From the NCBI GenBank assembly GCA_030017895.1, contig JASEGV010000005.1, positions 5,988 to 69,987 of the forward strand: DNA of 64,000 nt. Direction: 5' to 3'. This document shows, piece by piece, positions 11,025 through 61,180 of the stretch. This stretch comes from Bacteroidota bacterium (GTDB taxonomy: Bacteria > Bacteroidota > Ignavibacteria > UBA10030 > BY39). The notes beneath the pieces were generated by a model. That model saw only the letters and a list, made by a program, of their open reading frames with translations. It made no database searches and was not told where the DNA came from. The first letter of the stretch is position 1. Each line of letters begins with the position of its first letter. The position numbers and the translations under genes are program-made.

Positions 11025-11975
11025 ATGCCAAAAGTAATTTTAGATTTTGAAAAGCCGATTTACGAAATCGAACAGAAAGTCGAAGAGATGAAAAAGTTAG
11101 GACAGAGCATCGATTTGACGGACGAGATCAATACACTTGAGAGCAAGTTAGAACTAATGAAAAAAGATATATACAAAAATCTTTCACGATGGCAACGTGT
11201 ACAGATGGCACGCCACCCCGAAAGACCTTATACGCTCGATTATATTCAGATGATGACCGGCGATTTTATCGAACTGCATGGCGATAGAAACTTTCGCGAC
11301 GATAAGGCAATTGTAGGCGGCTTCGCGATGTTAGATAACGAACCTGTGATGATAATCGGGACTCAGAAAGGGAGAGACACAAAACAGAATGTTTACCGGA
11401 ATTTCGGTATGCCAAATCCTGAAGGATACCGCAAAGCTCTTCGGTTAATGAAATTAGCAGCAAAGTTTAAGCGCCCCGTAATTACCATGCTCGATACACC
11501 CGGAGCATATCCTGGATTAGAGGCTGAAGAACGTGGGCAGGCAGAAGCGATTTCACGCAATATTTTCGAAATGTCGCATCTCACCACTCCGATTATAGTA
11601 ACAATCATCGGCGAAGGAGCATCAGGAGGTGCATTAGGAATAGGCGTTGGCGATAGAGTATTGATGATGGAGAACTGCTGGTTCACTGTAATTGCACCCG
11701 AGTCTTGTTCGAGCATTTTATGGCGAAGTTGGGAACACAAAGAAAAAGCGGCTGAAGCTCTTAAATTAACCGCACCTGATTTGTTACAACAAGGTATCAT
11801 CGATCGAATAATTCCTGAACCGCTTGGCGGGGCTCACCGCAATCCCGATGAAGCTGCATCCGTTCTAAAAACCGTTCTTCTTGAAGAAATAAAGAAACTC
11901 AAAAAAATACCGACGGATAAGTTGATTGAAAAGCGAATTGAAAAATACGCTAACATGGGCGACTGGGAAGAATAA
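11025..11975 (+). CDS. accA: Acetyl-CoA carboxylase carboxyltransferase subunit alpha
   Basis: 316 aa, colinear with AccA (..[50 protein letters not shown]..). Confidence 0.9.
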
Positions 11976-22916: not shown

Positions 22917-22918
22917 TA

Positions 22919-23000
22919 ATTTAGTTATTGGTTGTTGTGGTTCGACAAGCTCACCACAAGGTTTTAAGTTATAGTTTTTCAGTCAATAGTTTTAGTTGCT
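22919..23000. repeat. 82-bp direct repeat copy 1, abutting the GTG start of 20778..22916
   Basis: aatttagttattggttgttgtggttcgacaagctcaccacaaggttttaagttatagtt(t/c)ttcagtcaatagttttagtt. Repeated at 23149..23230 with one mismatch. Contains the hairpin ttgtggt-N11-accacaa. Confidence 0.85.
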
Positions 23001-23029
23001 AGTTCTCAGTTTACAAAACCATTAACTAA

Positions 23030-23128
23030 CTGAAGTTACGCAAAAGAGTCATTCTGAACGAAGTGAAGAATCTGAAACCTCAAATTCAGGCTATTTTTTG
23101 ACAAAAAGTCAATTCTGCGTAACTTCAG
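23030..23128 (-). mobile_element. MITE-like element copy A (99 bp). TIR CTGAAGTTACGCA/TGCGTAACTTCAG. Flanks ttaactaa / ttaactga (7/8 TSD)
   Basis: Same element family as 40296, 45952, 51683 and 58870, in the same orientation as copy E. Lacks the internal cccgctc..gagcggg hairpin module. Confidence 0.85.
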
Positions 23129-23148
23129 TTAACTGATAACTATATTTC

Positions 23149-23230
23149 AATTTAGTTATTGGTTGTTGTGGTTCGACAAGCTCACCACAAGGTTTTAAGT
23201 TATAGTTCTTCAGTCAATAGTTTTAGTTTT
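23149..23230. repeat. 82-bp direct repeat copy 2
   Basis: See 22919..23000. The two copies bracket MITE copy A. Confidence 0.85.
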
Positions 23231-23303
23231 TAGCTTACAACTATAAAACTACAACCAGCAACTATTTAACCAAAACAAATAACTAATGACTAATAACTAC
23301 TAC

Positions 23304-25553
23304 TCATCTCAGCAGAAGCATCTTCCGCACTACATTAAACCTATTATTTGCGTCCTTAATTCTACAGAAATAAATACCTGAAGCTAAATTGGTTCCATCG
23401 AAGTAAACTGCATTTTTACCTTGATAAAATTCTATGTTATCAGCTAATGTTATTACTTCCTGTCCAAGAACGTTATATACTTTTATATTTACAATACTTT
23501 TTTCAGGCAAATCAAACTCGATTGTAGTAAACGGGTTGAACGGGTTGGGATAATTTTGTGCGAAAACCTCTTGTTGAGAAATTGCAATATTTTGTGTTGT
23601 GAAAGAACCGCTGCCGTATTTCAAAGTTACACCGTACAAACCTACAGCCCAAACATTTGCACTATCAATCGAAAATATATCGTATAAAGCACTCCGTATT
23701 GGCGAGGGGACATTTAACCATGTGCTTCCGCTGTTAGTAGTGGATAAAATTGTCCCAGACAAACCTACCGCCCAACCGTTTAAAGAGTCGGTAAAGGTTA
23801 TGCTTTTTATTTCTCTAGTTGTACCTGACACTTGTGTGAGCCAATTAAAGCCACCGTTTGTTGTTTTTCTAATAGTACCACCTGACCCCACTGCCCAGCC
23901 GGTAGTAGGCGAAATAAAATGGAGTGAATTTAACTTCCGTGTAGTTCCAGATGGCTGAGCAACCCAGCTTTCGCCACTGTTTGTAGTTTTAAAAATTAGT
24001 CCGCTTGTACCTGTTACCCATCCAGTTTGGTTATTTACGAAATAAACATCATAAAAATTATTTGAAACTCTTGGCTTAGTCGTGTACCAGGTATCACCAC
24101 CGTTAGTCGTTTTCCGGACATAACCGCTGCTGCCAACAACGAATCCGAGGTCATGGTTTAAGAAAAATATTTTATAAAAAGTTTTCGTCGAACCGCTCAT
24201 CAAACGGTACCAATTTGTACCACCGTCTGTTGTTTTTTCAATTAAACCCGTTCTGCCGGCAATATATATTGTAGCAGAATCAACCATAAAAATTGAGTTT
24301 GCTTTTTTACCGGCCAAAGCCGTTTGAATAATCCAGTTTGAACCACCATTTGTACTTTTATAAACTATTCCGTAACGCCCTAATGCCCAGCCATTGCTGG
24401 GGTCGGAAAATTGAACAGCATACAAATTATCTCTATGTCCGTGCGAAAGTTGTACCCAATCTTCACCACCATTTGTTGTTTTAAGTATAGTTCCCCTTAC
24501 ACCTGCAACAAAACCTGTAGCAGAATCCAAAAATTTGACAGCATCAAGCCACTCAGTAGTTCCTGATGTCTGTGGAATCCAAGTAATCCCTTCATTGACA
24601 GTTTTCATAATTGTACCGTTTGAACCAACAGCCCATCCGGTTGTTGAATCGACAAAATCCACATCGTCTAACCAGGCATTTGTCCCTGAGTTTGCAGTTA
24701 ACCAATTACTTCCACCATTAGTTGTCCGACGCATAGTGCCTTTTAAACCGACAGCAACACCTTTGTTTTGTGTAAAAAATTTTACGCTGGTTAGAATGTT
24801 TGTTGTTCCGGAACTTTGTGCATTCCAGACCGAACCACCGTTTGAAGTATAATAAATTTTGCCTGAATCGCCAACTGCCCAACCCCTTGAGCCATCAAGA
24901 AAATTGATCTCAAATAATCTGACGGGTGACAAGACAAATTGCGGAGACCAAATACTGCCACCATTACTCGTACGGATTATTAAACCATTCATACCACAAA
25001 TCCAACCGGTATCCCTATTAATGAACATTGCGTCGAAAAAAGGAAAATTAGAATAAAACTGCACCCCGAGGTTTAATTTTGCCCAGTTATCGCCACCGTC
25101 AATAGTTTTTAAAATTTTACCTCCTAAACCGACAGCATATCCGTATAAACTATCTATCATGTCGATGTCGTATAAATCACCGCTTGTAAGTCCTAAACCA
25201 AACTTAACATCCCATGAATTACCGGAATCTGTTGTTTTCAGGATTGAAGAAGAGGCACCCGCAAAAAAAACATTTCTTTTAGAGGTTACATCAATTCCGT
25301 ATATAGAAAAACCCGTTGGGTAAGGATTTTGCCAATACCAATATAAATCGGTGGGGGCGAACATATCTTCAACCATTTCCTCCATGGAACCATACGGAAA
25401 AGAAGAATCTAATGAATCCTCTATAAAGATTTCATCGTCAATATCTATACTGTCGGGTAGCTGTGCATTCAAGTTTCCATTAAGAAGTAGAAAAAACATG
25501 GCACTTATCCACATGAATAATATATATTTTAGTTTTATTATTAAGTATTTCAT
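23304..25553 (-). CDS. BNR/Asp-box repeat beta-propeller protein with T9SS C-terminal domain (749 aa)
   Basis: Signal peptide. About 14 (S/T)(T/S)NGG(x)xW repeats. C-terminal ..FAQNYPNPFNPFTTIEFDLP..VYNVLGQEV..SGIYFCRI... Paralog of 20778..22916. Confidence 0.8.
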   Translation of the reverse strand: MKYLIIKLKYILFMWISAMFFLLLNGNLNAQLPDSIDIDDEIFIEDSLDSSFPYGSMEEMVEDMFAPTDLYWYWQNPYPTGFSIYGIDVTSKRNVFFAGASSSILKTTDSGNSWDVKFGLGLTSGDLYDIDMIDSLYGYAVGLGGKILKTIDGGDNWAKLNLGVQFYSNFPFFDAMFINRDTGWICGMNGLIIRTSNGGSIWSPQFVLSPVRLFEINFLDGSRGWAVGDSGKIYYTSNGGSVWNAQSSGTTNILTSVKFFTQNKGVAVGLKGTMRRTTNGGSNWLTANSGTNAWLDDVDFVDSTTGWAVGSNGTIMKTVNEGITWIPQTSGTTEWLDAVKFLDSATGFVAGVRGTILKTTNGGEDWVQLSHGHRDNLYAVQFSDPSNGWALGRYGIVYKSTNGGSNWIIQTALAGKKANSIFMVDSATIYIAGRTGLIEKTTDGGTNWYRLMSGSTKTFYKIFFLNHDLGFVVGSSGYVRKTTNGGDTWYTTKPRVSNNFYDVYFVNNQTGWVTGTSGLIFKTTNSGESWVAQPSGTTRKLNSLHFISPTTGWAVGSGGTIRKTTNGGFNWLTQVSGTTREIKSITFTDSLNGWAVGLSGTILSTTNSGSTWLNVPSPIRSALYDIFSIDSANVWAVGLYGVTLKYGSGSFTTQNIAISQQEVFAQNYPNPFNPFTTIEFDLPEKSIVNIKVYNVLGQEVITLADNIEFYQGKNAVYFDGTNLASGIYFCRIKDANNRFNVVRKMLLLR

Positions 25554-40249: not shown

Positions 40250-40295
40250 TTAATTTTTCCTTATAGATTATTTATTATTAATTTTTATTAACTGA

Positions 40296-40429
40296 CTGAA
40301 GTTACGCAGAATTGACTTTTTGTCATGTTGAGCGAAGCGAAACATCTAAAAATAGCCTGAATTTGAGGTTTCAGATTCTTCTCCCGCTCTACGAGCGGGA
40401 TCAGAATGACTCTTTTGCGTATCTTCAGT
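40296..40429 (+). mobile_element. MITE-like element copy B (134 bp, longest variant). Right TIR degenerate (tgcgtatcttcag)
   Basis: Contains all internal modules: gaattgactttttgtca + tgttgagcgaagcgaaacatctaaa + aatagcctgaatttgaggtttcagattcttc + tcccgctctacgagcgggatc + agaatgactctttt. Flanks ttaactga / ttacttat. Confidence 0.85.
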
Positions 40430-40447
40430 TACTTATTTCTAATTAGC

Positions 40448-45508: not shown

Positions 45509-45951
45509 AAAATCCTCCTATAGTTTTTTGATTGTTTGTTGATTAATTGAAACATTGATTTAAGGTTTGTTTGTTTTGTTATGTATTTTTTGAATTAATA
45601 TAATAAATCTGAGAACTCTTGGGTTGAGAAGAAATGTATTCCAGGCAATTACTCCTTTCAAATATTTTATTTGATTACTAAAAATAATTATTTAAAATTT
45701 CAATAGTTACAGAAACATCTTACTAATTTTGCGCGCTTACTACTTTGTTTTCGGGTATTATATTTTCTAAAGCAATCTAATACTTTTTTTAACAACAGTC
45801 AAGTGTTAAGTAAAATCTGATATAAATATAATGTTTTTTTAATAGAAGTCAAGTATTTTATTAAGAAAAATAAAAAAATATTTTGCTGAAAATTTGTTGT
45901 TTTTCGTGTTAAATTGAAACACTTATAAAACGTGCAAATTACACTGTTTTA

Positions 45952-46084
45952 CTGAAGTTACGCAGAATTGACTTTTTGTCATGTTGAGCGAAGCGAAACA
46001 TCTAAAAATAGTCTGAATTTGAGGTTTCAGATTCTTCTCCCGCTCTACGAGCGGGATCAGAATGACTCTTTTGCGTAACTTCAG
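45952..46084 (+). mobile_element. MITE-like element copy C (133 bp) with perfect 8-bp TSD CTGTTTTA
   Basis: Left flank 45944..45951 ctgtttta. Right flank 46085..46092 ctgtttta. Full internal module set. Lies 18 bp downstream of the aroC stop. Confidence 0.9.
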
Positions 46085-46101
46085 CTGTTTTAAGTGTATT
46101 T

Positions 46102-50012: not shown

Positions 50013-50441
50013 TTATAAGACATATCGCTTAATACCTTGTCCAATATTAACAACATTAAAGTTGATTAAATAACCTAAACGTTTGTTAGTTAATTTCAAA
50101 TGACTTAAAACTTGAGCTTCCCAAACAGGATTGATTAAATCCACTGCTTTAATTTCACAAATTATTTTATTCTCAACCAAAACATCCAATCGTAATCCCT
50201 CTTGAAATGTAATACCATCATAAACTATTGGGATATCCATTTGGCGCAAATATTCTAACCCCCTTTTTGTTAATTCGTGGCAAAAACAGATTTCATATAC
50301 TTTTTCCAGTAATCCTGGTCCGAGTGTTTTATGAACAGTATAAGCAGCATCGACAATTTTTTTTCCAATGCTTTCTAATTCCTGAGGTAAGGTGTCAAAA
50401 TCTTTTTTGTGATATTTTGTGTTTTGGTGATTTTGTGGCAT
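50013..50441 (-). CDS. GxxExxY protein (PDDEXK_3 / PD-(D/E)XK nuclease superfamily small protein), inserted inside the aro cluster
   Basis: 142 aa. GLLEKVYE (GxxExxY), ..DVLVENKIICEIKAV.. and C-terminal ..LGYLINFN.. motifs of the family. Confidence 0.7.
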   Translation of the reverse strand: MPQNHQNTKYHKKDFDTLPQELESIGKKIVDAAYTVHKTLGPGLLEKVYEICFCHELTKRGLEYLRQMDIPIVYDGITFQEGLRLDVLVENKIICEIKAVDLINPVWEAQVLSHLKLTNKRLGYLINFNVVNIGQGIKRYVL

Positions 50442-50449
50442 ATTATGTA

Positions 50450-51622
50450 TTATAATCTTAATTTTGTTAAATAGTTACGTGCTATCAATAATGCTTCAAC
50501 ATCTTCGGCAGTAAGAGGTACATCTATCACTCCACTTCCGATTTTTTCTATTAGTGTGTATAAAATAATATCCTCAACTGCTTTTTTATCTGTTTGTGTT
50601 GCTTCGACATAATCGGGAACGCTATAATTTTTCGGTAGGTCTGTGGGTAACCCAAAATGTGTCAGCAACATTTTAAGTTTAACTACCGATTTGCGATTCA
50701 GAATTTTCAAACGAAAAGCCATTTCAGCTTCTGCAACCATTCCGATTGAAACAGCAGCACCGTGAGGAATTTTGTAATTGCTTAATTTTTCAAGTGCATG
50801 ACCAATCGTATGCCCAAAATTCAAAATTCGTCTGTACGATTTTTCTTTTTCATCTTTGTTAACAACTTCAGCTTTTAATTCGCAGCAACGCTCGATAATA
50901 TTCTTCAACAACTTTGTATCACGAGAAAGAATTTTTTTGTAATTCCGAACGAGTAGTTCAAACAATTTTACATCAAGCGATGCACCGTATTTAACAACTT
51001 CGGCTAACCCATTCCGGTACTCTTCATCGGATATTGTTTGCAATGTCGAAACATCTATATATACTGTATCGGGTTGGTAGAATGCGCCAATCAGGTTCTT
51101 CCCAAGCGGGTGGTTGAGCCCAACTTTACCCCCAACACTGCTATCGACCTGTGCAAGTAAGGTTGTTGGAATTTGGATGAACGGAACTCCTCTGAACAAT
51201 GTTGCAGCTACAAAGCCGGCAATATCGCCGACAACTCCCCCACCGAGTGCAATAATTACTGAGTTTCTGTTAGCTCCTGATTTTATTAACTGATTTTCTA
51301 AATACTCTTTGGTCTTCCGTGTTTTTGATTTTTCACCAGCTTGAAATGTAAATACTTTTGAAGTAACACCTTGCCTTTTTAAAAAGTTATTAAAATTTCG
51401 TGCGTAAAGTTTTTCGACATTTGTATCAGTAATGATAAAACATTTCGATTTGGGAAATTTCTTAACAATATCGGCAGCCGCAAATGATAATGATCCGTCA
51501 TCTGACGGACCGATATAAATATCGTACGACTTTTTGTTATTGTTTGAAATTTTTACTTTTACTTTTTCGTGCATATGTAATTTAAACTTGTAATAATAGA
51601 ACACGGATACACACTGATTCAA
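50450..51622 (-). CDS. aroB: 3-dehydroquinate synthase
   Basis: Colinear with AroB (..GGGVVGD(I)AGFVAATLFRGVPFIQIPTTLLAQVDSSVGGKVGLNH..). The real start may be the internal Met at ~51574 (MHEKVKV); the upstream in-frame MNQCVSVFYYYKFKLH extension is doubtful. Confidence 0.88.
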   Translation of the reverse strand: MNQCVSVFYYYKFKLHMHEKVKVKISNNNKKSYDIYIGPSDDGSLSFAAADIVKKFPKSKCFIITDTNVEKLYARNFNNFLKRQGVTSKVFTFQAGEKSKTRKTKEYLENQLIKSGANRNSVIIALGGGVVGDIAGFVAATLFRGVPFIQIPTTLLAQVDSSVGGKVGLNHPLGKNLIGAFYQPDTVYIDVSTLQTISDEEYRNGLAEVVKYGASLDVKLFELLVRNYKKILSRDTKLLKNIIERCCELKAEVVNKDEKEKSYRRILNFGHTIGHALEKLSNYKIPHGAAVSIGMVAEAEMAFRLKILNRKSVVKLKMLLTHFGLPTDLPKNYSVPDYVEATQTDKKAVEDIILYTLIEKIGSGVIDVPLTAEDVEALLIARNYLTKLRL

Positions 51623-51682
51623 CGGAATCAGACGGATTGTTTTATCTGTGTTCGTTTCGAATTCTTTTTTTATCGTTAGTAA

Positions 51683-51793
51683 CTGAAGTTACGCAGAATT
51701 GACTTTTTGTCAAAAAATAGCCTGAATTTGAGGTTTCAGATTCTTCTCCCGCTCTACGAGCGGGATCAGAATGACTCTTTTGCGTAACTTCAG
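51683..51793 (+). mobile_element. MITE-like element copy D (111 bp), inserted into/truncating a GxxExxY gene
   Basis: TIRs intact. Internal modules lack the tgttgagcgaagcg.. segment. Flanks gttagtaa / tcattaac. The stop codon of ORF 51790..51969 lies in the right TIR. Confidence 0.85.
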
Positions 51794-51969
51794 TCATTAA
51801 CTAACAGGTCGACAAAATAATCACCAACTTCGAGCCCTTCGTAATGCACTTTTATATGCTTTTGCTGCTCAACTCTCAACCCGTGTCGTAGTAATTCAAT
51901 CTTAAGAGAGTTTTCGTAAACTTTATAAAATGCACCGATGATAATATTTGTTAATTCTTCATGTAACAT
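51790..51969 (-). pseudogene. Truncated GxxExxY (PDDEXK_3) gene remnant, 59 codons, terminated inside MITE copy D
   Basis: Own translation MLHEELTNIIIGAFYKVYENSLKIELLRHGLRVEQQKHIKVHYEGLEVGDYFVDLLVND* aligns to the N-terminal half of 50013..50441. The C-terminal half (..ENKIIxEIKAV..LINFN) is absent. The last two codons and the stop (gac tga) lie in the element's TIR. Confidence 0.5.
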
Positions 51970-51989
51970 ATTTGTCCGTGTATATCCGT

Positions 51990-52157
51990 CTAATCCGCGT
52001 TCATCTGTGTCCTATGCACCAAACTATTTTTTGCAAATTCTAATTCTTCAACCGAACGTTTGAGCTTTTCGGCTGCCTCTTCATCGGTGTAACCTGCCTC
52101 TTTTCTCACCCATTCAAGTAAACGATGATTAACCAAGGCAGGAATTGATCGAGCCAT
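51990..52157 (-). pseudogene. Fragment of an XRE-type HTH DNA-binding protein (55 codons)
   Basis: Own translation MARSIPALVNHRLLEWVRKEAGYTDEEAAEKLKRSVEELEFAKNSLVHRTQMNAD*. The N-terminus resembles HTH_XRE regulators often paired with ImmA-type peptidases or restriction-modification systems; the rest is missing. Confidence 0.3.
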
Positions 52158-52264
52158 AGCTTATTTTTTTATCTTGTGATATCAATTGAAATTTCAAATT
52201 AATATAGTTAATGTTTTAGTCTATTTCAACTAATAACATTCGACTATTTCATGTAATAATCCAT

Positions 52265-55200
52265 TCAAAAATTATGAATCCCGTACTCTTCCATAATCTC
52301 CTTTGCCATCCGTTCAGCGACGCTCCAATCGTGCAACTTTTGATGTGCATCTTCTTCAAGGGATTTTCTGAGGTTTCTGACATAACGGTGATATTTTTTG
52401 AGTATCGACTCAACAACTTTGTCACTCTTGGGAATCTTCAATTGGTAAACATTTTCCTTTGCAAGAATCATGGCAAACTCTGCTATTGACTCGCCTTCGA
52501 TTTGAAGTATTAGTTTTCCGCTCTCATCCTTAAGTTCGTAATGCCCCATAAAATGTTCGGAGTGAAGTTTCTTACCAGTAGTTGGATGTGTTTCGCACTC
52601 AACTTTTAAATAATTATCATCGTAGAAATCTTCGGGGAATTTTCTTATTCCATCCGACAAACAATCTTTTATCACGGAAGCTTTTACCTGATCGTATGAT
52701 ATTTTTACTTTTTCTTTCTGCTGCTTCTTGCGCATTTTCGGCAGCTCAAGCCGCTCATGCACCATTTCACACAAACCCTCGTAAATGCGGGGTAGATATT
52801 CTTCAACATTGAGACCTAAAGCTTTAAGCACAGCCGCATCTAATGCCTTGCGATCTTTTTGTTTGATTTCCTCGAATATTGGTTTGATCTTTCTTTTTTC
52901 TAATTTAGAAATATCGAATTTTACATCGGTATCTGGGATGAGCATGTTTTCAACGTCCTCCACAGTAAACTCCTTAGCATTGCCATTATTAACATCTCTA
53001 CCGTATGCTTCAAGATGAAGAATGTTGAGAAAGGAGTTTAAGAAGACTAAAACACTCTCCTTATTAGGCTTGATGGAATAAAGACGCTTGTCTACTAAGA
53101 ATCTTTCTTTATTATGAAACGCTAAGAATCTATTTCGAGGTGCTGCAAGATAAAGGATCTCATCATCAATAACATTATTGATACCATACCAATATTTTCT
53201 GCTTTGGACAGATTTAATTTTTGGAAAACTCACGTTTTGCTCGTTTGTCTGTGTCTCACCCCACTCAATATATCTTAACGCTCCAACATCTCCCTGTTTT
53301 TTTAACTTTTCTTTCGATTCGTTACAAACGAAAAGTAATACTGTCACCTCATTTGATTCAATTAGTATTTTTTTAAATTGCGACGAGTCTTTGATAATTC
53401 TTTTTAAATATTTTTGTTCAATTTCGCCTTCCCATCCCCGATCGTTGCGGCATTGTACTCTCATGTCATTCTGAGTCCCGTTGCTCTTCAGACGGGACGA
53501 AGAATCTTTCTTTTCTATAGAAGTGAGGCCCTTCGCTTCGCTCAGGGTGACAATGGATGTGAGATAGAAAAATTCATTGATACCTGTCTTAATTCCGAAA
53601 CGCACATCGGCAATCTGCTTCAACGGCACAAGCTTATCTTTGCACTTTTCCAAAATCTCAAAGTAAACATCGGGCGCACGGAGATACTTTCCCCATTTTG
53701 CCAGATCTTCTTTCCCCTGAAGCTCGTGAATAATATCGGATTGCTTTACCATCCGTATGCGCATTTCATCTGTTTCCAAAGAAGAAATGACGTCGGAAAC
53801 TTTTCGTACTTTCTTATCGTGCTCAGCCGATTCGATCATGCTTACAATGCCGTCAATCCTATCCCACCTTTTCTGCGACTCAAGCCGAAGGTCACGAAAT
53901 GGAATAAGCTCTTCCAATTTCATTTTCAGCTTTACAAAATGGACGATGTTATCGCTTCTCGCTTGTGTATTCTCTTCACGCTCAAGAACCGTTACAATCG
54001 TATTTACTGCCGCATCTTCGAACCACGGCTCAGCCCACGATGCAATAATCATCTTGATTTTGAAGTGATCGAGGAAAAATTGTTTCATAACAGAGCCGTA
54101 AGAAACATCGAGCCACGAGTTTGATGTGATGATAGCGAATGCTCCATCCTTTGAGAGAAGCGTTGCAGTGTGAAGGAAAATGTAAGCGTAAATATCCGCC
54201 TGACCGGATAACTTTAACTCAACGTGTCCTTTTTCCACCCATCGCTGGATAGATTTTTTCTGTTCGGCCTCACTCAAACCACGTGCATTGGCGATGTCTT
54301 TCTCTTTTATACTTTTTAATTCGAAAAGCGAGGGGTAAGTAAGAAGGTATTCCTCTGCAAGTATTTTTGTTAAATCCTTTTTATATCCCTTTACTTTCTT
54401 TTCAATAAGTTCTTGGCGTATGTATGGGAAATTACCGACCAGCCCATGAAATTCAGGGATAGTCACGTCAATCTTGTCTTTGAAATATTTACCGGCGTGC
54501 GGTGGTGGAAACGGGAAGCTTTCCCCTTTACGAATTTCAAAAACATCCTTATGAACTACCCTTGGAAAATTATCGAAGTTTTTTACATCCTGCCTGAACA
54601 GATTAATCGTAGAAAGCTCAGCAGGGAATTTTCCGATATCGATTCCCCAGATTTGATTCAGTAACTGGTTGTGTGTTGCCCGATGTCCCGAAAGATAACG
54701 AAGCCGGTCGTACAGCCGGATTAAAAATGTTCCTGAGCCGCATGTCGGGTCTCCGTAAAATCCATCTTTGTCTTGAACGACAGTACCGATGATGAGATCA
54801 ACCAAATCTTCCCGTGTAAAGTATTGTCCAAGATTGTGTCTTTGTTCAGGATCTACTATTTCCTCAAACAACTCACCAATAACATCTTCAGGCAAATCCC
54901 CAAAATGATAAACCCGCAGCTCAGAAAACAATTCACGAAGATACGGATAAGCGGAATTGGGAATGCCAAGCCCTTCAATCGGTCCATCCACGAAAACAGC
55001 TTGCCAATCTTTTTCGCTTGCTTTCGTGAATGCAACCTTGAGCAGACGATTTAAATCCCGCTCATCGGATTGGTGCAGCTCGGGTAAATCTTCAAAGTAC
55101 CTGCTAACTGTAAGATAAAAGATGATTTTTGTTATCAACCCATAAACACGTTGGCGGGCTATAAGTTTGAAGAATTCACTATCCGAGGGATACGTTATGC

Positions 55201-55894
55201 CTTGCTTCGTAACGTACTCAGTGATCTTTGCTTTCTTTTTCTTATCACGGGATTCATCTTTGAAAAACTTTTCAAATTCAGGTATCAACTGTTGTGTTGA
55301 ATTGCGAAGAAGATTTACAAAATAAACTTTCTCCGGCTGAAATCTCTCAAATGATCCGACATCATGAAGCCGTATAACCTCTGAACAAATGCGGCGAATG
55401 TATGCTTTTATTGTTGCCTGAATATCTCCACGCAGCCAGTCATTTATGTTTGTGAGAATAGGTGTCGGCTCAGAACCAAGCGGTTCAAGTTTATTTCCCT
55501 TTACCTTGAACGCGTTGAGTGATTGGAAATCCCAAGTGTAAGCATATTCCACTTTTAGCTGGACAGCTTTTTGTCTGAATGTTTCTAAATTTTCTCTTGC
55601 AGCAAAAGGTGGTTTTAGTTCTAAGTACGTGTAAGCATCACGCGCTTGAAGGTTTTTCCAGATTACGAGATCGCCAAAACGAGTTGTTGTTTCTGTGGGA
55701 ATGCCGGGTTCATTCGTTGCTTCCGTGAAAGGAAAAGCATTTCGTTTGATATGCTCGTTGAACCATTCGGTAATCTTGCCGAGAAGTTCGCGTTCGTTTG
55801 TCTTTATTTTTCCCATTATGCCGGATATTGGATGAATAAAAGTTGGTTTGATGATTATTAAGTTAATAATAGGTTGCCAGAAAAGCAAAACCAA
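52265..55894 (-). CDS. MmeI-like single-polypeptide Type IIG (Type IIL) restriction-modification enzyme: N-terminal PD-ExK nuclease + gamma-class N6-adenine methyltransferase + target-recognition region
   Basis: MTase motif I YGDPTCGSGTFLI and motif IV-like GNFPYI. N-terminal (F)GDLVIW..YLELK resembles the MmeI D-x9-ExK nuclease motif. C-terminal FGIKTGINEFF motif of the MmeI/PglX family. The probable real start is M at 55816 (MGKIKTNE), because the first 26 codons from 55894 are hydrophobic read-through. Carries an in-frame 96-bp palindromic insertion at 53462..53557. Confidence 0.8.
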   Translation of the reverse strand: MVLLFWQPIINLIIIKPTFIHPISGIMGKIKTNERELLGKITEWFNEHIKRNAFPFTEATNEPGIPTETTTRFGDLVIWKNLQARDAYTYLELKPPFAARENLETFRQKAVQLKVEYAYTWDFQSLNAFKVKGNKLEPLGSEPTPILTNINDWLRGDIQATIKAYIRRICSEVIRLHDVGSFERFQPEKVYFVNLLRNSTQQLIPEFEKFFKDESRDKKKKAKITEYVTKQGITYPSDSEFFKLIARQRVYGLITKIIFYLTVSRYFEDLPELHQSDERDLNRLLKVAFTKASEKDWQAVFVDGPIEGLGIPNSAYPYLRELFSELRVYHFGDLPEDVIGELFEEIVDPEQRHNLGQYFTREDLVDLIIGTVVQDKDGFYGDPTCGSGTFLIRLYDRLRYLSGHRATHNQLLNQIWGIDIGKFPAELSTINLFRQDVKNFDNFPRVVHKDVFEIRKGESFPFPPPHAGKYFKDKIDVTIPEFHGLVGNFPYIRQELIEKKVKGYKKDLTKILAEEYLLTYPSLFELKSIKEKDIANARGLSEAEQKKSIQRWVEKGHVELKLSGQADIYAYIFLHTATLLSKDGAFAIITSNSWLDVSYGSVMKQFFLDHFKIKMIIASWAEPWFEDAAVNTIVTVLEREENTQARSDNIVHFVKLKMKLEELIPFRDLRLESQKRWDRIDGIVSMIESAEHDKKVRKVSDVISSLETDEMRIRMVKQSDIIHELQGKEDLAKWGKYLRAPDVYFEILEKCKDKLVPLKQIADVRFGIKTGINEFFYLTSIVTLSEAKGLTSIEKKDSSSRLKSNGTQNDMRVQCRNDRGWEGEIEQKYLKRIIKDSSQFKKILIESNEVTVLLFVCNESKEKLKKQGDVGALRYIEWGETQTNEQNVSFPKIKSVQSRKYWYGINNVIDDEILYLAAPRNRFLAFHNKERFLVDKRLYSIKPNKESVLVFLNSFLNILHLEAYGRDVNNGNAKEFTVEDVENMLIPDTDVKFDISKLEKRKIKPIFEEIKQKDRKALDAAVLKALGLNVEEYLPRIYEGLCEMVHERLELPKMRKKQQKEKVKISYDQVKASVIKDCLSDGIRKFPEDFYDDNYLKVECETHPTTGKKLHSEHFMGHYELKDESGKLILQIEGESIAEFAMILAKENVYQLKIPKSDKVVESILKKYHRYVRNLRKSLEEDAHQKLHDWSVAERMAKEIMEEYGIHNF
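53462..53557. repeat. In-frame 96-bp palindromic element inside the restriction-modification gene (encodes SIVTLSEAKGLTSIEKKDSSSRLKSNGTQNDM)
   Basis: catgtcattctga-gtcccgttgctcttcagacgggac-gaagaatc...gaggcccttcgcttcgctcagggtgacaatg. Its arms are related to internal modules of the MITE (gtcattctga[tcccgctc..gagcggga]gaagaatc; tgtcatgttgagcgaagcgaaacatc). Length is a multiple of 3 and there is no stop codon. Confidence 0.7.
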
Positions 55895-55933
55895 TAAATT
55901 CTTTGAAACAAGCCAATTTTTCTTTAGATTTAA

Positions 55934-58873
55934 TTGATGAAAACATCTAAGTCAGGCGAAAAGATTCAAAGAAGAAAGAACTCAACAAAGTACAAGAAGA
56001 ACGACCGTATTCTTACCAAAAATCTTATCATCCGCGGCGCACGGGTTCACAATCTCAAAAACATTAATTTAGAACTCCCCCGCAACCAACTTATTGTATT
56101 TACAGGAGTTAGCGGTTCGGGGAAATCGAGTTTAGCTTTTGATACAATCTATGCCGAAGGACAGCGCCGTTTTGTCGAAAGTTTATCAGCTTATGCCCGC
56201 CAATTTCTTGAACGAATGGATAAACCCGACGTTGATTCTATCGAGGGATTGAGTCCGGCTATTGCAATCGAACAAATCACTTCCACACGTAATCCTCGAT
56301 CGACAGTCGGTACAACCACTGAAATATATGACTATCTCCGACTTCTCTTTGCTCGAATCGGAAAAACCATTTGCCACAAATGTGGAAAATTCGTTCAACG
56401 CGACTCGGTTAAAACCGTACTCTCCAAATTAGAAACAGAGCTTGCTGATCTTTCCGAATCACGCCTTTATGTAATGTTCCCTTTGCAAACTCACACCAAA
56501 GCAAGTTTTAAGAAAGAAATCGAGAATATCAAGAAGCAGGGATTTATAAGAATCTTTTGTAAAAACGAGTTGATAGATTTAACAGAAATTTCCTCAACAA
56601 AACTTTGTACGAAGGAGTTAAACAAGAGCGATATATTTGTAGTAGTCGATAGAATAATTTTCAGAAAATCGGACGACACTACACGGCTTGCAGATTCGAT
56701 TGAAACAGCATTTAATCTTGGAAATGGTAATCTGATTTTAAAAGTTCTTGAGAACGATAAAACTTTACGATTCAACCAGCATTTTAATTGTGCTGATTGC
56801 AGCATCGGGTATGAAGAACCTGACCCGCGTTTGTTTTCGTTTAACAATCCTTATGGGGCTTGCCCTGTTTGTCAAGGTTTTGGGAAATCGGTAGGGATAG
56901 ATTTAGATTTGGTAATACCGAACAAATCGAAAACTATTCGTGATGGCGCCATTCAACCTTGGACTACACCCAAATGGAAAAAATATCTTGAAGATTTTAT
57001 AATAATTGCTGACGATGCGGGTGTTCGTTTAGATGTTCCGTTTTATGATTTAACTAAAGAAGAAATCAACATCATACTAAATGGATGGGATGGTTTCGCC
57101 GGTCTTTACAAATTTTTTAAGTTCATCGAAAGCAAATCGTATAAAATACATTACAGATATTTTTTAAGTCGCTTCCGTGGTTATACTACCTGCCAGGATT
57201 GTAATGGTTCACGTGTAAGAAAAGAAGCATTAAACATTCGTATTGCAGATAAGACAATTTTCGATGTTGTGCGGATGACGCTTGATCAGGCGTTCGTTTT
57301 TTTTAATCCGTCGTTTGACGGACAATTAAGTGAATTCGATTTTAATATTGCCAGCAGAATATTAGAAGAACTGAAACGCCGCTTGAAATATCTTGTTGAT
57401 GTTGGAATCGGATATCTCACACTCGACCGGTTATCGAACACTCTTTCGGGGGGCGAATCGCAACGGATTAATTTAGCTACATCTTTAGGTTCGTCGTTAA
57501 TGGGTGCTATTTATGTTTTAGATGAACCGAGTATCGGATTGCACCCGCGTGATAACGACAAACTTATCGGGATTCTTAAATCGATACGAGATGTGGGCAA
57601 TACCGTTATTGTAGTTGAACATGATTCAGATATGATGAAATCGGCAGATGTGATACTTGATTTAGGACCGGGGGCTGGCGAAAACGGCGGAAATGTAGTG
57701 TTTCAAGGGACTTACGATGAAATCAAAAGAGATTCAATGTCGCTTACCGGCAAGTATTTGAGCGGAAGGCTCGCTATTCCGCTCCCTAAAAATCGAAGAT
57801 TTAATGAGACCAAAAACCTTATCATAAAAGGTGCATCAGCAAACAACCTGAAAAATGTGGATGTCGAAATTCCACTGAATAAATTTGTATGTATCACCGG
57901 CGTGAGTGGTTCCGGTAAAAGCACATTGGTAATGGATATACTTTATCCGGCTCTCAAGAATATCAAAGCGAACAGTAGCGTTAATTCAGAAAATTTTCTC
58001 TCCGAAAATCTCAAGCATCTGCAGGGAAGCCAATTTATAGACGGCGTTGAATTGGTTGACCAATCCCCGATTGGTCGAACGCCGCGCTCGAACCCTGTTA
58101 CTTATATAAAAGTTTTTGATGCAATCCGAAATCTTTATGCAAACACGCAAGCTGCAAGAATCCGTGGATATACACCGGGAAGTTTTTCGTTCAACGTGGC
58201 TGCTGGCCGTTGCGATGCTTGCGAAGGAAGCGGTATCCAAGTTATCGAGATGCAGTTCCTTGCCGACTTGCAACTGACTTGCGATGTTTGTAAAGGAAAA
58301 CGCTTTAAAAAAGAAATACTCGAAGTCAAATACCACAGTAAAAATATAAGCGATGTTTTGAACCTGACTGTCTCGGAAGCAATAACATTTTTCAGTTCCG
58401 ATGTTTCAGCACGACGGATTGTCAAGCAATTACAGATTTTACTTGACGTAGGACTTGGATACATCCGGCTTGGGCAACAGGCAACAACACTATCGGGCGG
58501 TGAAGCACAACGAATAAAATTAGCCGCACACTTGTTAGCGCAGGATACAGGAGGTAGAAAACTTTTTATTTTCGATGAGCCGACAACAGGTTTACATTTC
58601 GATGATATTGCAAAACTTTTAAAATGCTTCGACGCCTTAATTATGGACGGACACTCAGTTCTCATCATCGAACATAATATGGATGTAATAAAATGCGCCG
58701 ATTGGATAATTGATTTAGGTCCCGAAGCCGGTGAGGCAGGCGGTCGTGTTGTTGCGGTTGGAACTCCCGAAGAAGTTGCTTTAAATAAAAACTCACATAC
58801 TGGAAAGTTTTTAAAAATAATTGATAGTATGCGGGAGTATTATTACCGAAACAAAAATTTACTCAGTTACTGA
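55934..58873 (+). CDS. uvrA: Excinuclease ABC subunit A
   Basis: 979 aa. Two ABC ATPase modules ([14 protein letters not shown].. and ..[13 protein letters not shown]..), zinc-finger Cys clusters, LSGGE signature motifs. The stop codon TGA (58871-58873) lies inside the left TIR of MITE copy E. Confidence 0.95.
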
Positions 58874-58980
58874 AGTTACGCAAAAGAGTCATTCTGATCC
58901 CGCTCGTAGAGCGGGAGAAGAATCTGAAACCTCAAATTCAGACTATTTTTTGACAAAAAGTCAATTCTGCGTAACTTCAG
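58870..58980 (-). mobile_element. MITE-like element copy E (111 bp) with 7-bp TSD TCAGTTA, overlapping the uvrA stop codon
   Basis: Left flank 58863..58869 tcagtta. Right flank 58981..58987 tcagtta. Sequence is the reverse complement of copy D. Confidence 0.9.
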
Positions 58981-59096
58981 TCAGTTAATAAGAAAAAGTA
59001 TAATGCCTTAATTCCACAATACCCCATCACTTAGTTCCTCTTCCTACCAATTATACTACCGAAGCAACTTGCTATTATATTCAAACATTCATATAT

Positions 59097-59121
59097 TCGA
59101 CTAATCAAATTTATTAGTCAA
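59097..59121. promoter_or_regulatory. Palindromic operator candidate upstream of the TetR gene
   Basis: tcGACTAAT-caaattt-ATTAGTCaa (7-bp perfect arms, 7-bp spacer), about 20 bp upstream of the TetR ATG. Typical autoregulatory TetR operator geometry. Confidence 0.4.
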
Positions 59122-59140
59122 ACAATTTCATAAATTAAAT

Positions 59141-59752
59141 ATGCCAGAAAATCAAGAAATTTCACAGGATTTAAAGAAAAATCAAATCCTCGCAGCCGCT
59201 AAACAGGTGTTTGGCAGGTTCGGATTTGCTAAAACCACACTCGATGATGTGGCAAATGCAGTCGGTATGAAAAAAGCTTCGCTCTACTATTACTACGACA
59301 GCAAGGAAGAACTTTTTAGGGATGTTGTAAAATCGGAGACGGATGAATTGGTAACAGAGTTGGAAAATAAAGTATTAACAATCACCGGTGTTCACGACCA
59401 ATTAACCATTTTTATAAAAACTCGCATCAATTATTTTCAGAAATTAATTAACCTTCATAACCTAACAGTAAATTCTATTTTAGAATTCAGACCAATATCA
59501 GAACTGCTCTACCGCGAATTTTTTGAGAAACAAATTCTGATAGTTGTAAAAATTTTTTCGGATGGACTGCAGAGAGGTGAATTGAAAAATGTTGATACCC
59601 ACAGAGCGGCGAATATATTCGTCTCGGCTATCGAATCAATCGCAACGAAAGTCCTTAGCAAAAGCAAGTCAACAAACGAAATAAATTATAAGTCTATCGA
59701 AAACGATTCGCTCTTCTTAACAGAGCTAATTATTAACGGACTTAAAAAATGA
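59141..59752 (+). CDS. TetR/AcrR-family transcriptional regulator
   Basis: N-terminal HTH ..ILAAAKQVFGRFGFAKTTLDDVANAVGMKKASLYYYY... Located upstream of the efflux operon. Confidence 0.8.
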   Translation: MPENQEISQDLKKNQILAAAKQVFGRFGFAKTTLDDVANAVGMKKASLYYYYDSKEELFRDVVKSETDELVTELENKVLTITGVHDQLTIFIKTRINYFQKLINLHNLTVNSILEFRPISELLYREFFEKQILIVVKIFSDGLQRGELKNVDTHRAANIFVSAIESIATKVLSKSKSTNEINYKSIENDSLFLTELIINGLKK

Positions 59753-59809
59753 AATAAAGTTAATGGTTAATGGTTTGATGGGCCACATACCAATAGCTAA
59801 ATAAATTGT

Positions 59810-61180
59810 ATGAACAAAATAATACAGGAGAATATCTTGAAGATAAAATGCATCATAATTCTTTTATCTTTTTTCTTAATTACAGCTACAATTATAAAAG
59901 CACAAGAGAATGTAGCAAGAAAGATAAATTTACAAACTGCTATCGAGCTTGCACTCGAACAGAATAAAGCTCTGAACATCAGTAAACTTGAAGTTGATAA
60001 AACTCATTCCAAGTTGACTGAAGCCCGCAGTAATCTGCTTCCGAAAATTAATGCAAGCGGTCAATACACTAACAACATTAAAAAGCCGGTAATATTTTTA
60101 CCGCCGGGAACACCATTCAGCAGACCGGGACAGCCGGCAATTATGGAAATCGGTTCCGACCATTCATATTCAGGAATAATTTCAGCATCACTACCGGTTT
60201 TCTCATATCCGATTTACATCGGTATGTCGATGGCAAACACTGGTAAAGATTTAGCAGAAGAAACTTTCAGAGGTACAAAATTTAAAACGATTGCAGATGT
60301 TAAAAAATCGTTCTACGGTGTATTACTATCTCGCGAAGTGAAAAACCTGATGATTGCAAGTTTGAAAAACGCAAACGATAATTTCGAGAACGTACGAAAA
60401 ATGCAAAAACAAGGTTTGGTTTCTGAATACGATTTAATCCGCGCCGAGGTTCAAGTTGAGAATGTGAAACCAATTGCACTTCAAGCTGAAAATAATTATG
60501 AACTTGCAAAGAACTCGTTCAAAATTGCATTAGGTTTAGATGCTTCAGTAAATATAGATATCGATGGCGAACTGGATTATAAACAAACCGAAACCCCAAA
60601 TTTTACGAGGACGGTAGAGGTATTAGACCAAAACAATTCTGATATAAAACAACTGCAATATCACGTAGATATCGCAAAATCGATGATAAATTTAGAACGC
60701 AGCGGACATTTACCCACACTTGCTGCTTTCGGAAATTACCAATATCAAACTCAAGCAAACGACTTAAAATTCAAAGATTATAATTGGGTAAACACGCAAT
60801 TTGTTGGACTACAATTGCAAATTCCGATTTTTAACGGTTGGGGAACTCAGGCAAAAATCGACCAAGCTAAAATTTCCTACCAGCAATTGCTTGATAGGCA
60901 AAACCTGCTGACCGAAGCGGTTAAGATTCAAGCACAAAATGTAATATACCGGATTGAACAAGGGAAAAAACGCATTGATGGACAGGATAAGGCGATTGCA
61001 CAAGCCGAACGTGGATTCGAGATTGCAAAGTCGAGATACAGCAATGGACTCGGAACTCAATTAGAAGTGAACGATGCCGAACTCGCTCTCACTCAGTCAA
61101 AGGTGAATTACTTTCAGGCAGTTTACGATTATAATTCTGCTGTTGCAGAGTTAGAACAACTTTTAGGAAATAATTTTTAA
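59810..61180 (+). CDS. TolC-family outer membrane efflux protein
   Basis: 456 aa with signal peptide. Two-repeat alpha/beta organisation with OEP-family motifs (..LTEARSNLLPKINASGQYT.., ..AELEQLLG). Confidence 0.8.
   Translation: MNKIIQENILKIKCIIILLSFFLITATIIKAQENVARKINLQTAIELALEQNKALNISKLEVDKTHSKLTEARSNLLPKINASGQYTNNIKKPVIFLPPGTPFSRPGQPAIMEIGSDHSYSGIISASLPVFSYPIYIGMSMANTGKDLAEETFRGTKFKTIADVKKSFYGVLLSREVKNLMIASLKNANDNFENVRKMQKQGLVSEYDLIRAEVQVENVKPIALQAENNYELAKNSFKIALGLDASVNIDIDGELDYKQTETPNFTRTVEVLDQNNSDIKQLQYHVDIAKSMINLERSGHLPTLAAFGNYQYQTQANDLKFKDYNWVNTQFVGLQLQIPIFNGWGTQAKIDQAKISYQQLLDRQNLLTEAVKIQAQNVIYRIEQGKKRIDGQDKAIAQAERGFEIAKSRYSNGLGTQLEVNDAELALTQSKVNYFQAVYDYNSAVAELEQLLGNNF

Follow-up and report, generated by a model that had tools for sequence, protein, structure and literature searches.

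The locus analyzed here raises the question of how an 87-bp palindromic repeat came to lie, in frame, inside the gene of a restriction-modification enzyme, and what it means for that enzyme. The locus is part of a 64-kb stretch of contig JASEGV010000005.1 of a Bacteroidota bacterium, hereafter the window; window-wide negative results apply to these 64,000 nt. We favor, with a probability of roughly two in three (0.68), the reading that the repeat is a selfish element resembling a dimer of repetitive extragenic palindromes (REPs), tolerated in a permissive loop of the enzyme. The host gene, the repeat with its parts and the adjoining protein segments are, in window coordinates:

52265–55816, minus strand: host gene, 1183 codons, single-chain Type IIG restriction-modification enzyme
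53552–53587, minus strand: conserved strand before the loop, TGINEFFYLTSI, residues 744–755, of which 751–754 are modelled as a strand
53465–53551, minus strand: whole intragenic repeat, 87 bp, 29 codons, residues 756–784, termini GTCATTCTGAG / CTCAGGGTGAC; a doublet of two inverted REP-like units
53465–53506, plus strand: unit A, 42 nt, GTC-ATTCT-GA-[GTCCCGTTGCTCTTCAGACGGGAC]-GA-AGAAT-C, that is head, 5-bp stem, tandem G-A/G-A step and inner 7-bp hairpin
53507–53526, no strand: spacer between the units, TTTCTTTTCTATAGAAGTGA, 20 nt
53527–53551, minus strand: unit B in its short form, 25 nt, GTC-ACCCT-GA-[GCGAAGC]-GA-AGGGC-C, with the GCGAAGC mini-hairpin inside
53426–53464, minus strand: returning β-hairpin strand, MRVQCRNDRGWEG, residues 785–797

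The repeat is bounded by 11-nt inverted termini, GTCAYYCTGAG. This sequence has exactly two sites in the window, at 53465–53475 (plus strand) and 53541–53551 (minus strand), which face each other, with 0.03 expected. Inner hairpin arms of 14 nt (53468–53481 and 53492–53505) are 86% complementary, and the region 53455–53565, folded as single-stranded DNA, reached −18.7 kcal/mol (z = −3.17), a value that none of 200 shuffles attained. The palindromic nature of the repeat, noted in the first-pass annotation, is borne out by these features. The repeat encodes the stop-free peptide VTLSEAKGLTSIEKKDSSSRLKSNGTQND, in frame with the host gene as had been claimed, but the extent first given, 96 bp or 32 codons, included three host codons (S, I and M). 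Its closeness to a conserved motif, FGIKTGINEFFYL (TGINEFFYL), was likewise seen correctly, but it lies upstream of the motif in plus-strand coordinates only; in the protein, the insert starts three residues C-terminal to it. Units of 25 and 42 nt correspond to the stem-loop size of REPs (about 20–40 bp). With terminal inverted repeats, small size and no open reading frame (ORF) of its own, the element also has the features of a miniature inverted-repeat transposable element (MITE). It resembles Rickettsia palindromic elements (RPEs) as well, being a member of a repeat family that lies wholly within an intact ORF, is stop-free and has a net length that is a multiple of three. The GCGAAGC sequence inside unit B is described as a classic, extraordinarily stable DNA mini-hairpin in PMC13037366.

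The host ORF (52265–55894, minus strand, first ATG at 55816) encodes a protein 100% identical to a database entry annotated as “N-6 DNA methylase, MAG Bacteroidota” (MAG, metagenome-assembled genome). From the N-terminus it comprises a PD-ExK nuclease, then an N6-adenine methyltransferase of the gamma class and a target-recognition domain; a conserved helical domain forms the C-terminus. The nuclease residues D49, E66 and K68 and the methyltransferase motifs DPTCGSGTF and NFPY are invariant or nearly so in homolog alignments. PADLOC assigned the protein to REase_MTase_IIG (E = 2.9e-61), and Pfam N6_Mtase and Eco57I matched it. The earlier label “MmeI-like” proved loose: MmeI_Mtase scored 26.4 bits, under the threshold of 27, and the profile match to the MmeI structure 5HR4 (E = 1.9e-4) covered the methyltransferase part only. 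A fold search placed BpuSI (3S1S, E = 1.4e-19) at the top, followed by CamA, M.BseCI, PglX, DrdV and LlaBIII, with MmeI (5HR4, E = 7.6e-12) at position 49. With BpuSI and MmeI the protein shares the single chain, the N-terminal PD-ExK nuclease, the gamma-class methyltransferase and the target-recognition domain; it differs from them in its level of identity to the structures (~14%) and in the extra conserved C-terminal domain of ~180 residues. Judged by sequence profiles and modelled fold, the host protein is a Type IIG enzyme that can be called MmeI-like only loosely.

That the repeat is an insertion follows from comparison with homologs. We used the best 120 of 973 homologs (E ≤ 1e-10), of which 100 could be parsed for loop length, measured as the residues between FFYx and RxWxG. 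The loop is 11–20 residues long in 87 of these 100, compared with 40 in the host protein, and the protein P0003, 72% identical and with the same target-recognition domain type, has a native, hairpin-free loop, KPINALNEIKNIKEDSF. The element is therefore extra DNA, and the proposed in-frame insertion into the restriction-modification ORF stands. The first-pass annotation had expected alignment to confirm the block as an insertion, and against the 87 short loops it does; the closest relatives carry segments of equal length, which in form is the outcome that this annotation had named as refuting its claim, but these are unrelated palindromic repeats, which strengthens the insertion reading. A closer “empty-site” allele was sought by a metagenome scan, the best hit of which (66% identity) was the contig encoding P0003.

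The same element, with codon position, orientation and frame unchanged (VTLSEAKSLNKKEKKDSSSRLKSDGTQND), is present in P0014, an intact protein of 1179 residues that is 57% identical overall. Its locus (L131) comes from an independent assembly, the Logan assembly of run SRR29054605. The two copies differ at 11 of 87 nt, 5 of 67 in the units and 6 of 20 in the spacer, which is the fastest-evolving part. Three of the changes in the units keep or improve pairing: the CCC/GGG of the unit B stem has become CTC/GAG in a compensatory manner, and another change restores an outer A-T pair. The insertion is neither recent nor an assembly artefact.

The site of the insert was located in an AlphaFold model with a mean predicted local distance difference test score (pLDDT) of 82.9 and a predicted template modelling score (pTM) of 0.73. 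The fold around the insert is of high confidence, with strands at residues 751–754 and 786–790 on either side. Residues 764–782, within the insert, form the one long internal segment with pLDDT below 50, the only other such segment being 942–946. The insert is thus predicted to be a mostly disordered excursion at the tip of a β-hairpin at the start of the target-recognition domain, in line with the surface loop that the first-pass annotation had suggested looking for.

The element belongs to a family. The window holds one free doublet, the intragenic copy, and five MITE copies of ~140 bp with the same doublet-type core plus extra outer arms. The MITE core reads GTCATTCTGA[TCCCGCTCGTAGAGCGGGA]GAAGAATC ... 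GATGTTTCGCTTCGCTCAACATGAC and the intragenic copy GTCATTCTGA[GTCCCGTTGCTCTTCAGACGGGAC]GAAGAATC ... GAGGCCCTTCGCTTCGCTCAGGGTGAC, so that the palindrome is detectable against the MITE modules and the kinship first proposed between them is upheld. Beyond the window, a degenerate pattern for unit A, GTCATTCTGANYCCS N6-22 SGGRNGAAGAATC, was searched in a collection of species-representative genomes. At least 120 stretches from about 20 phyla matched, among them Chloroflexota, Bacteroidota, Ignavibacteria, Chlorobi, Omnitrophota, Zixibacteria, Planctomycetota, Verrucomicrobiota, Acidobacteriota, Elusimicrobiota, Patescibacteria, Melainabacteria, Clostridia and Gammaproteobacteria, and including the cultured isolates Helicobacter marmotae, Rosettibacter primus and Chlorobaculum thiosulfatiphilum. 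The figures that follow rest on the matches listed (123 in these stretches), and the GTCA head is invariant among them because the search patterns require it. In 77 of the 123, an inverted unit B with a self-complementary stem lies within 170 nt downstream, forming a doublet. These doublets are 64–188 nt long (median 94; the intragenic copy has 87), the stems of their two units usually differ, and they are flanked by T at −1 (59/77) and A at +1 (56/77), with no target-site duplication.

The two sides of the stem covary in this family. In 65 short-form units, gathered without demanding complementarity, 79.6% of cells were paired, compared with 64.9% in shuffles, and none of 500 shuffles reached the observed value. 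Changes on both sides of the stem were seen in 78 cells (24.6 expected), and the covariation score of 0.473 compares with no more than 0.154 when the partners were slid. Among generic matches, 198 of 314 had perfectly complementary triplets, of the types TTC, TCC, TGC, TGT, CCC and TAT. At least four matches to unit A fall in OY970334.1, a complete Bacteroidetes MAG chromosome, where four copies (L034, L043, L067 and L086) have long identical flanks in common (aaaacgcttgattatgtccttctgaaggaatactgacagatcatt | GTCATTCTGAACCCCGTCGCTTTTCAGACGGGGTGAAGAATC | catgacaatgacat...); in that genome, unit A would thus seem to belong to a repeat of greater length. A phage vehicle was considered and set aside, the unit A pattern being rare in viral contigs (2 matches).

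Other members of the family also lie in reading frames. Among the 107 genome copies that could be tested, four lie in frames without a stop for 240 nt or more to either side:

L049, 4604–4669: Planctomycetota, TPR/transglutaminase protein, 1342-codon open frame cut by the locus end; insert VTLSEAKGLRDSSSRQDGTQNDT
L120, 1359–1438: class I tRNA synthetase, between the catalytic and anticodon-binding domains (two Pfam domains)
L031 and L059: long ORFs without a Pfam match

The L049 insert encodes nearly the same peptide, in the same orientation and frame, as the copy in the restriction-modification gene. When 1.84 billion representatives were searched with the 32-residue peptide by phmmer, none matched at E ≤ 0.001; with a query this short and of such low complexity, the result is uninformative. 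Full-text literature searches for the repeat sequence returned nothing relevant in the searchable collection.

The loop of the enzyme has also received other palindromes. P0002 and P0005 (loci L001 and L004) carry GTAG-AGTCCGTTCCTCAGAACGGAC ... AGTCCGATTAAAGAATCGGACT-CTAC in it, and P0004 (L002 and L003) carries GGTAG-TCGCAGACTTCAGTCTGCG ... CGCAAGCTGAAGCTTGCGA-CTACC; compared with a table of REPs, both are built as GTAG-headed REP dimers. A nested CCCCCTCTC..TCCCCCTTACCAAGGGGGA..GAGGGGG palindrome, at times with a GTCCTTCGGAC side hairpin on either arm, is present in P0039, P0053 and P0054 (DNA read; L007, L008 and L009) and in P0046 (peptide only). Altogether, palindromic loop inserts of four element types occur in 9 of the 120 listed homologs, all full-length except P0005 (1012 residues, beginning at about residue 177 of the host protein), and relatives of the loop-palindrome modules were found elsewhere in the fetched genome loci. 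Besides N- and C-terminal extensions, no other lineage-specific insert of 13 or more residues was found in alignment A2. Insertion points after FFYL differ, at 3, 6 and about 9–10 residues. In a separate sample of 80 metagenome loci, the 70 most distant lack the entire β-hairpin. In one distant homolog of this sample, L169, a single REP with a GTAG head, GTAGGGGCGATTCATGAATCGCCCC, occupies another position of the gene (~1590–1625), likewise in frame, and RVGAIHESPP stands in place of KDK between EKC and LVPL (EKC[RVGAIHESPP]LVPL).

These observations can be joined in the following scenario. The element is built like a REP dimer (REPIN, that is REP doublet forming a hairpin, or BIME, bacterial interspersed mosaic element) from two inverted hairpin units, each with a GTCA head and a covarying 5-bp stem that encloses the tandem G-A/G-A step and the inner mini-hairpin; it would be a copy of a small non-coding mobile repeat. 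A copy would have landed in the most length-variable loop of the enzyme, at the β-hairpin tip where the target-recognition domain starts, and partly replaced that loop. We propose that it survived because its length is a multiple of three, it is stop-free in the frame used, its peptide is hydrophilic and mostly predicted to be disordered, and the fold remains intact. Afterwards it would have been inherited and, by recombination, moved together with the loop among homologs. The enzyme is most likely still functional and the insert presumably neutral. That unrelated palindromes reuse the loop is likely due to its being the sole place in a long gene that tolerates 10–30 extra residues. The REP-like anatomy suggests, by analogy, that mobilization may have involved single-stranded hairpin DNA and a Y1 (HUH) transposase of the RAYT (REP-associated tyrosine transposase) or IS200 kind.

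Several observations weigh against this reading. No direct repeat or target-site duplication is visible at the flanks of the element, which bears on the mode of insertion, and only 5 native loop residues are left in the host protein, compared with ~12–17 in other homologs, so that the event removed part of the loop and was not a clean insertion. Two Y1 transposases used as tblastn queries had no match in the window, and the intragenic element has no transposase gene of any kind detected beside it. The hairpin units are 7.5% diverged from those of L131, compared with 13–19% in flanking coding DNA, and may therefore be constrained, although the numbers are small. Finally, the inserts are strongly concentrated, a single ~15-residue loop hosting four element types in a set of roughly 120 homologs: under uniform placement, three further events in the same ~1.3% of the gene length would have a probability of roughly 2e-6 by simple arithmetic. 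Selection for a permissive site is sufficient, though not proven, as an explanation of this concentration; the differing insertion points, the other site used in L169 and the linker copies in other genes argue for such selection over precise targeting.

In the 120 listed genome loci, the same tblastn search gave 1–2 matches, none flanked by a doublet. The sole clear match is in L098, and no Y1 transposase linked to a doublet was found in the window or in these loci. In L007 (5732–6554; L008 has the same layout), an IS200-like Y1 transposase gene of 154 codons (NCBIfam transpos_IS200, E = 2e-22) lies directly downstream of the restriction-modification homolog. Small hairpins in inverted orientation, GATCCTCGTAGAGGATC / AATCCTCTACGAGGATT, AAACATCGTAGATGTTT and TGACCTCGACGAGGTCA, lie to either side of it, and the arrangement looks like that of REPs with a RAYT.

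The alternative that survives best, although we hold it unlikely, is that palindromes were recruited at the DNA level: a cruciform or hairpin at the start of the target-recognition domain would stimulate recombination and hence the exchange of specificity cassettes. Such exchange is frequent. The host protein and P0002 are ~95–100% identical over residues 1–740 and 980–1183 and 20–67% identical between, implying that the target-recognition cassette, loop included, was swapped. The groundwater contigs L007 and L008 are ~100% identical in their flanks and most of the gene, with 44–57% identity over ~370 nt of the target-recognition domain, which is an in situ swap of the specificity cassette. 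Divergence between these two lies at locus coordinates ~3900–4950, and their loop palindromes carry the GTCCTTCGGAC side hairpin on opposite arms. P0014 has P0002-like flanks yet the element of this window, so that the loop moves independently of its surroundings; recombination between two conserved islands, TGINEFFYL and CRNDRGWEG, carries loops from one gene to another. Between the host gene and L001, 96% identity is kept over a 30-nt island that begins with the VQC codons (nt 2360–2389 of the gene), although the preceding elements and the target-recognition domains that follow differ, and the strongly diverged block begins ~36 nt past the element, just beyond the island. The better conservation of the hairpin units relative to their flanks would also fit a role of the DNA structure. 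However, in the L007/L008 pair the palindrome lies ~250 nt upstream of the point where high divergence sets in, and the sequences begin to diverge mildly even before the palindrome, so that no junction coincides with it; the palindrome as the exact recombination junction was weakly supported both there and in the comparison of the host gene with L001, and was not retained. Most homologs, moreover, swap cassettes without a palindrome, target-recognition types being mosaic across alignment A1 with ~87% short loops. Breakpoints near a loop at a structural domain boundary are expected anyway, and the same repeat family is also found in unrelated genes, such as that of a tRNA synthetase.

Slightly less likely again is that the insert peptide is adaptive, a longer, flexible and charged loop altering DNA binding, specificity or cleavage distance or evading anti-restriction proteins, with repeats serving as a convenient source of loops. 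The peptides of all four insert types are indeed hydrophilic, with an abundance of Ser, Lys, Arg and Glu, the insert is in frame in two diverged genes, and the loop is naturally variable in length, with long non-palindromic versions in P0040, P0037, P0071 and P0019. But 5 of the 29 residues differ from P0014, the part encoded by the spacer being essentially free to vary, and what is conserved follows the arms of the DNA hairpins, compensatory pair included, rather than the peptide. Most of the peptide is predicted to be disordered (pLDDT < 50), and unrelated proteins contain the same type of peptide.

The first-pass annotation had suggested that the insertion may inactivate the target-recognition region. 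In its full form, this explanation holds that the insertion disables or uncouples target recognition and the nuclease, that at most the methyltransferase is left and that the gene is becoming a pseudogene. The insert does lie within the target-recognition domain, three residues past a nearly invariant motif, and it has replaced most of the native loop. We nevertheless consider inactivation quite improbable: the ORF of 1183 codons is intact with all catalytic motifs, the orthologous insertion persists in frame in the intact homolog P0014 in spite of 13–19% divergence of the flanks, palindromic inserts are carried by full-length homologs with the single exception given above, and the AlphaFold model keeps the surrounding fold at high confidence, the insert itself being a low-confidence loop. 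A native variable loop with a coincidental palindrome, or an assembly artefact, is refuted in practice: loop length is naturally variable and distant homologs lack the whole β-hairpin, but the element matches, unit by unit, the MITE of the window and a repeat family of at least 120 genome stretches, is present in the independent Logan assembly, folds with a z-score of −3.17 and has termini unique in the window.

Other classes of elements were compared with the repeat and rejected. The sequence CUGA-[GUCC..GGAC]-GAA of the element resembles the Haseloff-Gerlach hammerhead core; a hammerhead ribozyme was dismissed on reading the sequence, as the UGA supplying G8/A9 is missing and Rfam is silent. 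Rfam covariance models gave no match at E ≤ 1 over 51000–60000, which includes the element and two MITE copies. A TA target-site duplication, as in MITEs of the IS630/Tc1 type, does not fit flanks that read T|...|A rather than TA|...|TA. Integron attC sites, IS200/IS605 ends and Helitron/IS91 ends were rejected for misfit of termini and hairpin orientation, judged by known consensus sequences. A chance match at 11357–11372, with 3 mismatches to the left end, is ordinary-looking sequence without a palindrome. No intrinsic terminator or internal promoter was found in 53200–53800.

The MITE copies of the window are:

23020–23140, plus strand: short-form unit A (GTCATTCTGAACGAAGTGAAGAATC), without unit B
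40282–40436, minus strand: units A and B both present, unit B being GATGTTTCGCTTCGCTCAACATGAC
45945–46086, minus strand: units A and B both present
51662–51802, minus strand: doublet-type core, without unit B
58860–58995, plus strand: opposite in orientation to the copy at 51662–51802

They vary in a 22-nt block, AGATGTTTCGCTTCGCTCAACA, which is unit B and is precisely present or absent, and in the inner hairpin of unit A, ACGAAGT or TCCCGCTCGTAGAGCGGGA. Because of this variation, hairpin modules seem to be gained, lost and swapped independently. The sequences 51666–51804 and 58859–58997 form an inverted MITE pair of 139 nt, 91% complementary, which encloses a 7-kb segment with the restriction-modification gene, a UvrA-like ABC ATPase gene (55934–58873) and nothing else, a layout that resembles a composite element. 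An 85-nt direct repeat, 96% identical and including GGTTCGACAAGCTCACCACAAGG, lies on either side of the copy at 23020–23140 (22918–23002 and 23149–23233). The region 17500–40800 contains many diverged internal repeats, a periodicity of 120–123 nt in large ORFs at ~21000–25200 and blocks of 77–123 nt common to several genes; these look like genes of repeat-domain proteins. Two genes downstream of the restriction-modification gene, past a 3-dehydroquinate synthase gene, there is a small gene of the PD-(D/E)XK nuclease superfamily (50013–50441, minus strand; Pfam PDDEXK_3, E = 9e-39).

On the favored reading of a tolerated REP-dimer-like repeat, in-frame selfish palindromes, usually presented as a Rickettsia curiosity, occur in free-living, mostly uncultured bacteria of many phyla, and different hairpin repeats have colonized one and the same loop in a defence enzyme on four or more separate occasions. 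The loop inserts provide a natural map of tolerance to large insertions in a Type IIG enzyme, which helps engineering. As the family is defined by sequence (GTCA head, covarying stem, GCGAAGC-type inner hairpin), its mobilizing enzyme can now be sought. Annotators should be aware that repeat DNA underlies peptides like VTLSEAKGL...GTQND within proteins, as well as the many short “hypothetical proteins” that consist of such peptides. We put forward only tentatively, as a combination that we doubt more than we believe, that GTCA doublets are a third, undescribed REP-like superfamily with interchangeable inner mini-hairpins and that, in addition, the loop is a true preferred landing site or a recruited site of cassette exchange. 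Should the loop be a targeted site or an aid to recombination, small mobile repeats would be linked to the diversification of restriction specificity.

Classical REPINs, in the work of Bertels and Rainey, are extragenic, vertically inherited within a genus and mobilized by RAYTs. REPINs and BIMEs with RAYTs (Nunvar et al., 2010; PMC2817692) share with the element the inverted REP doublet that can fold into one long hairpin, the head tetranucleotide beside the stem and GCGAAGC-like loops, as in Klebsiella and Citrobacter REPs; the window, however, yielded no RAYT gene bordered by its own REPs. Bacterial MITEs such as Correia, ERIC, BOX and Nezha (PMC10969869) are likewise small, have terminal inverted repeats, lack coding capacity and are occasionally found in frame within genes. 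The element differs from them in showing no visible target-site duplication and in having termini that are hairpin units, not ends derived from insertion sequences. The analogy to RPEs drawn at the outset is apt, as these are in-frame selfish palindromes in many unrelated genes, with peptides compatible with the fold (Ogata et al., 2000, as summarized in PMC10969869). RPEs, however, were ~150 bp as first reported and are confined to Rickettsia and relatives, whereas the GTCA family spans 64–188 bp and crosses phyla, and here one loop is occupied repeatedly by different repeat families.

The claim that such insertions are rarely documented outside Rickettsia is not supported. Intragenic REPs, single and dimeric, that encode 20–30 residues are on record from several species, with genes for DNA repair and for tRNA synthetases as prominent cases, and REPs were proposed to lie in flexible linkers or loops of these REP-decorated proteins (PMC3733652); a review of MITEs lists further in-frame cases (PMC10969869). 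The GTAG- and CGTC-tagged REPs (Di Nocera, De Gregorio and Rocco, 2013; PMC3733652) are similar to the GTCA elements in being short stem-loops with a four-base head, mostly in inverted dimers, with some copies wholly within ORFs and in frame, in DNA-handling enzymes and tRNA synthetases. The homolog inserts of L001/L004, L002 and L169 are literally GTAG-headed, as the REPs of that study. The element of this window, in contrast, has a conserved 4-nt head that is GTCA, not GTAG, GTGG or CGTC, and the string GTCA is nowhere in the text of PMC3733652. GTCA units further have the tandem G-A step and a modular inner mini-hairpin, and no associated RAYT gene was identified for GTCA doublets in the window and the listed genome loci. 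Many GTAG/CGTC families are species-specific, whereas the GTCA consensus recurs across about 20 phyla. In-frame intragenic palindromes are thus already known, as REPs and RPEs. What appears to be new is a GTCA-headed, cross-phylum family with modular inner mini-hairpins, outside the GTAG and CGTC superfamilies of PMC3733652, and the way in which unrelated palindromic repeats have repeatedly colonized a single defence-enzyme loop.

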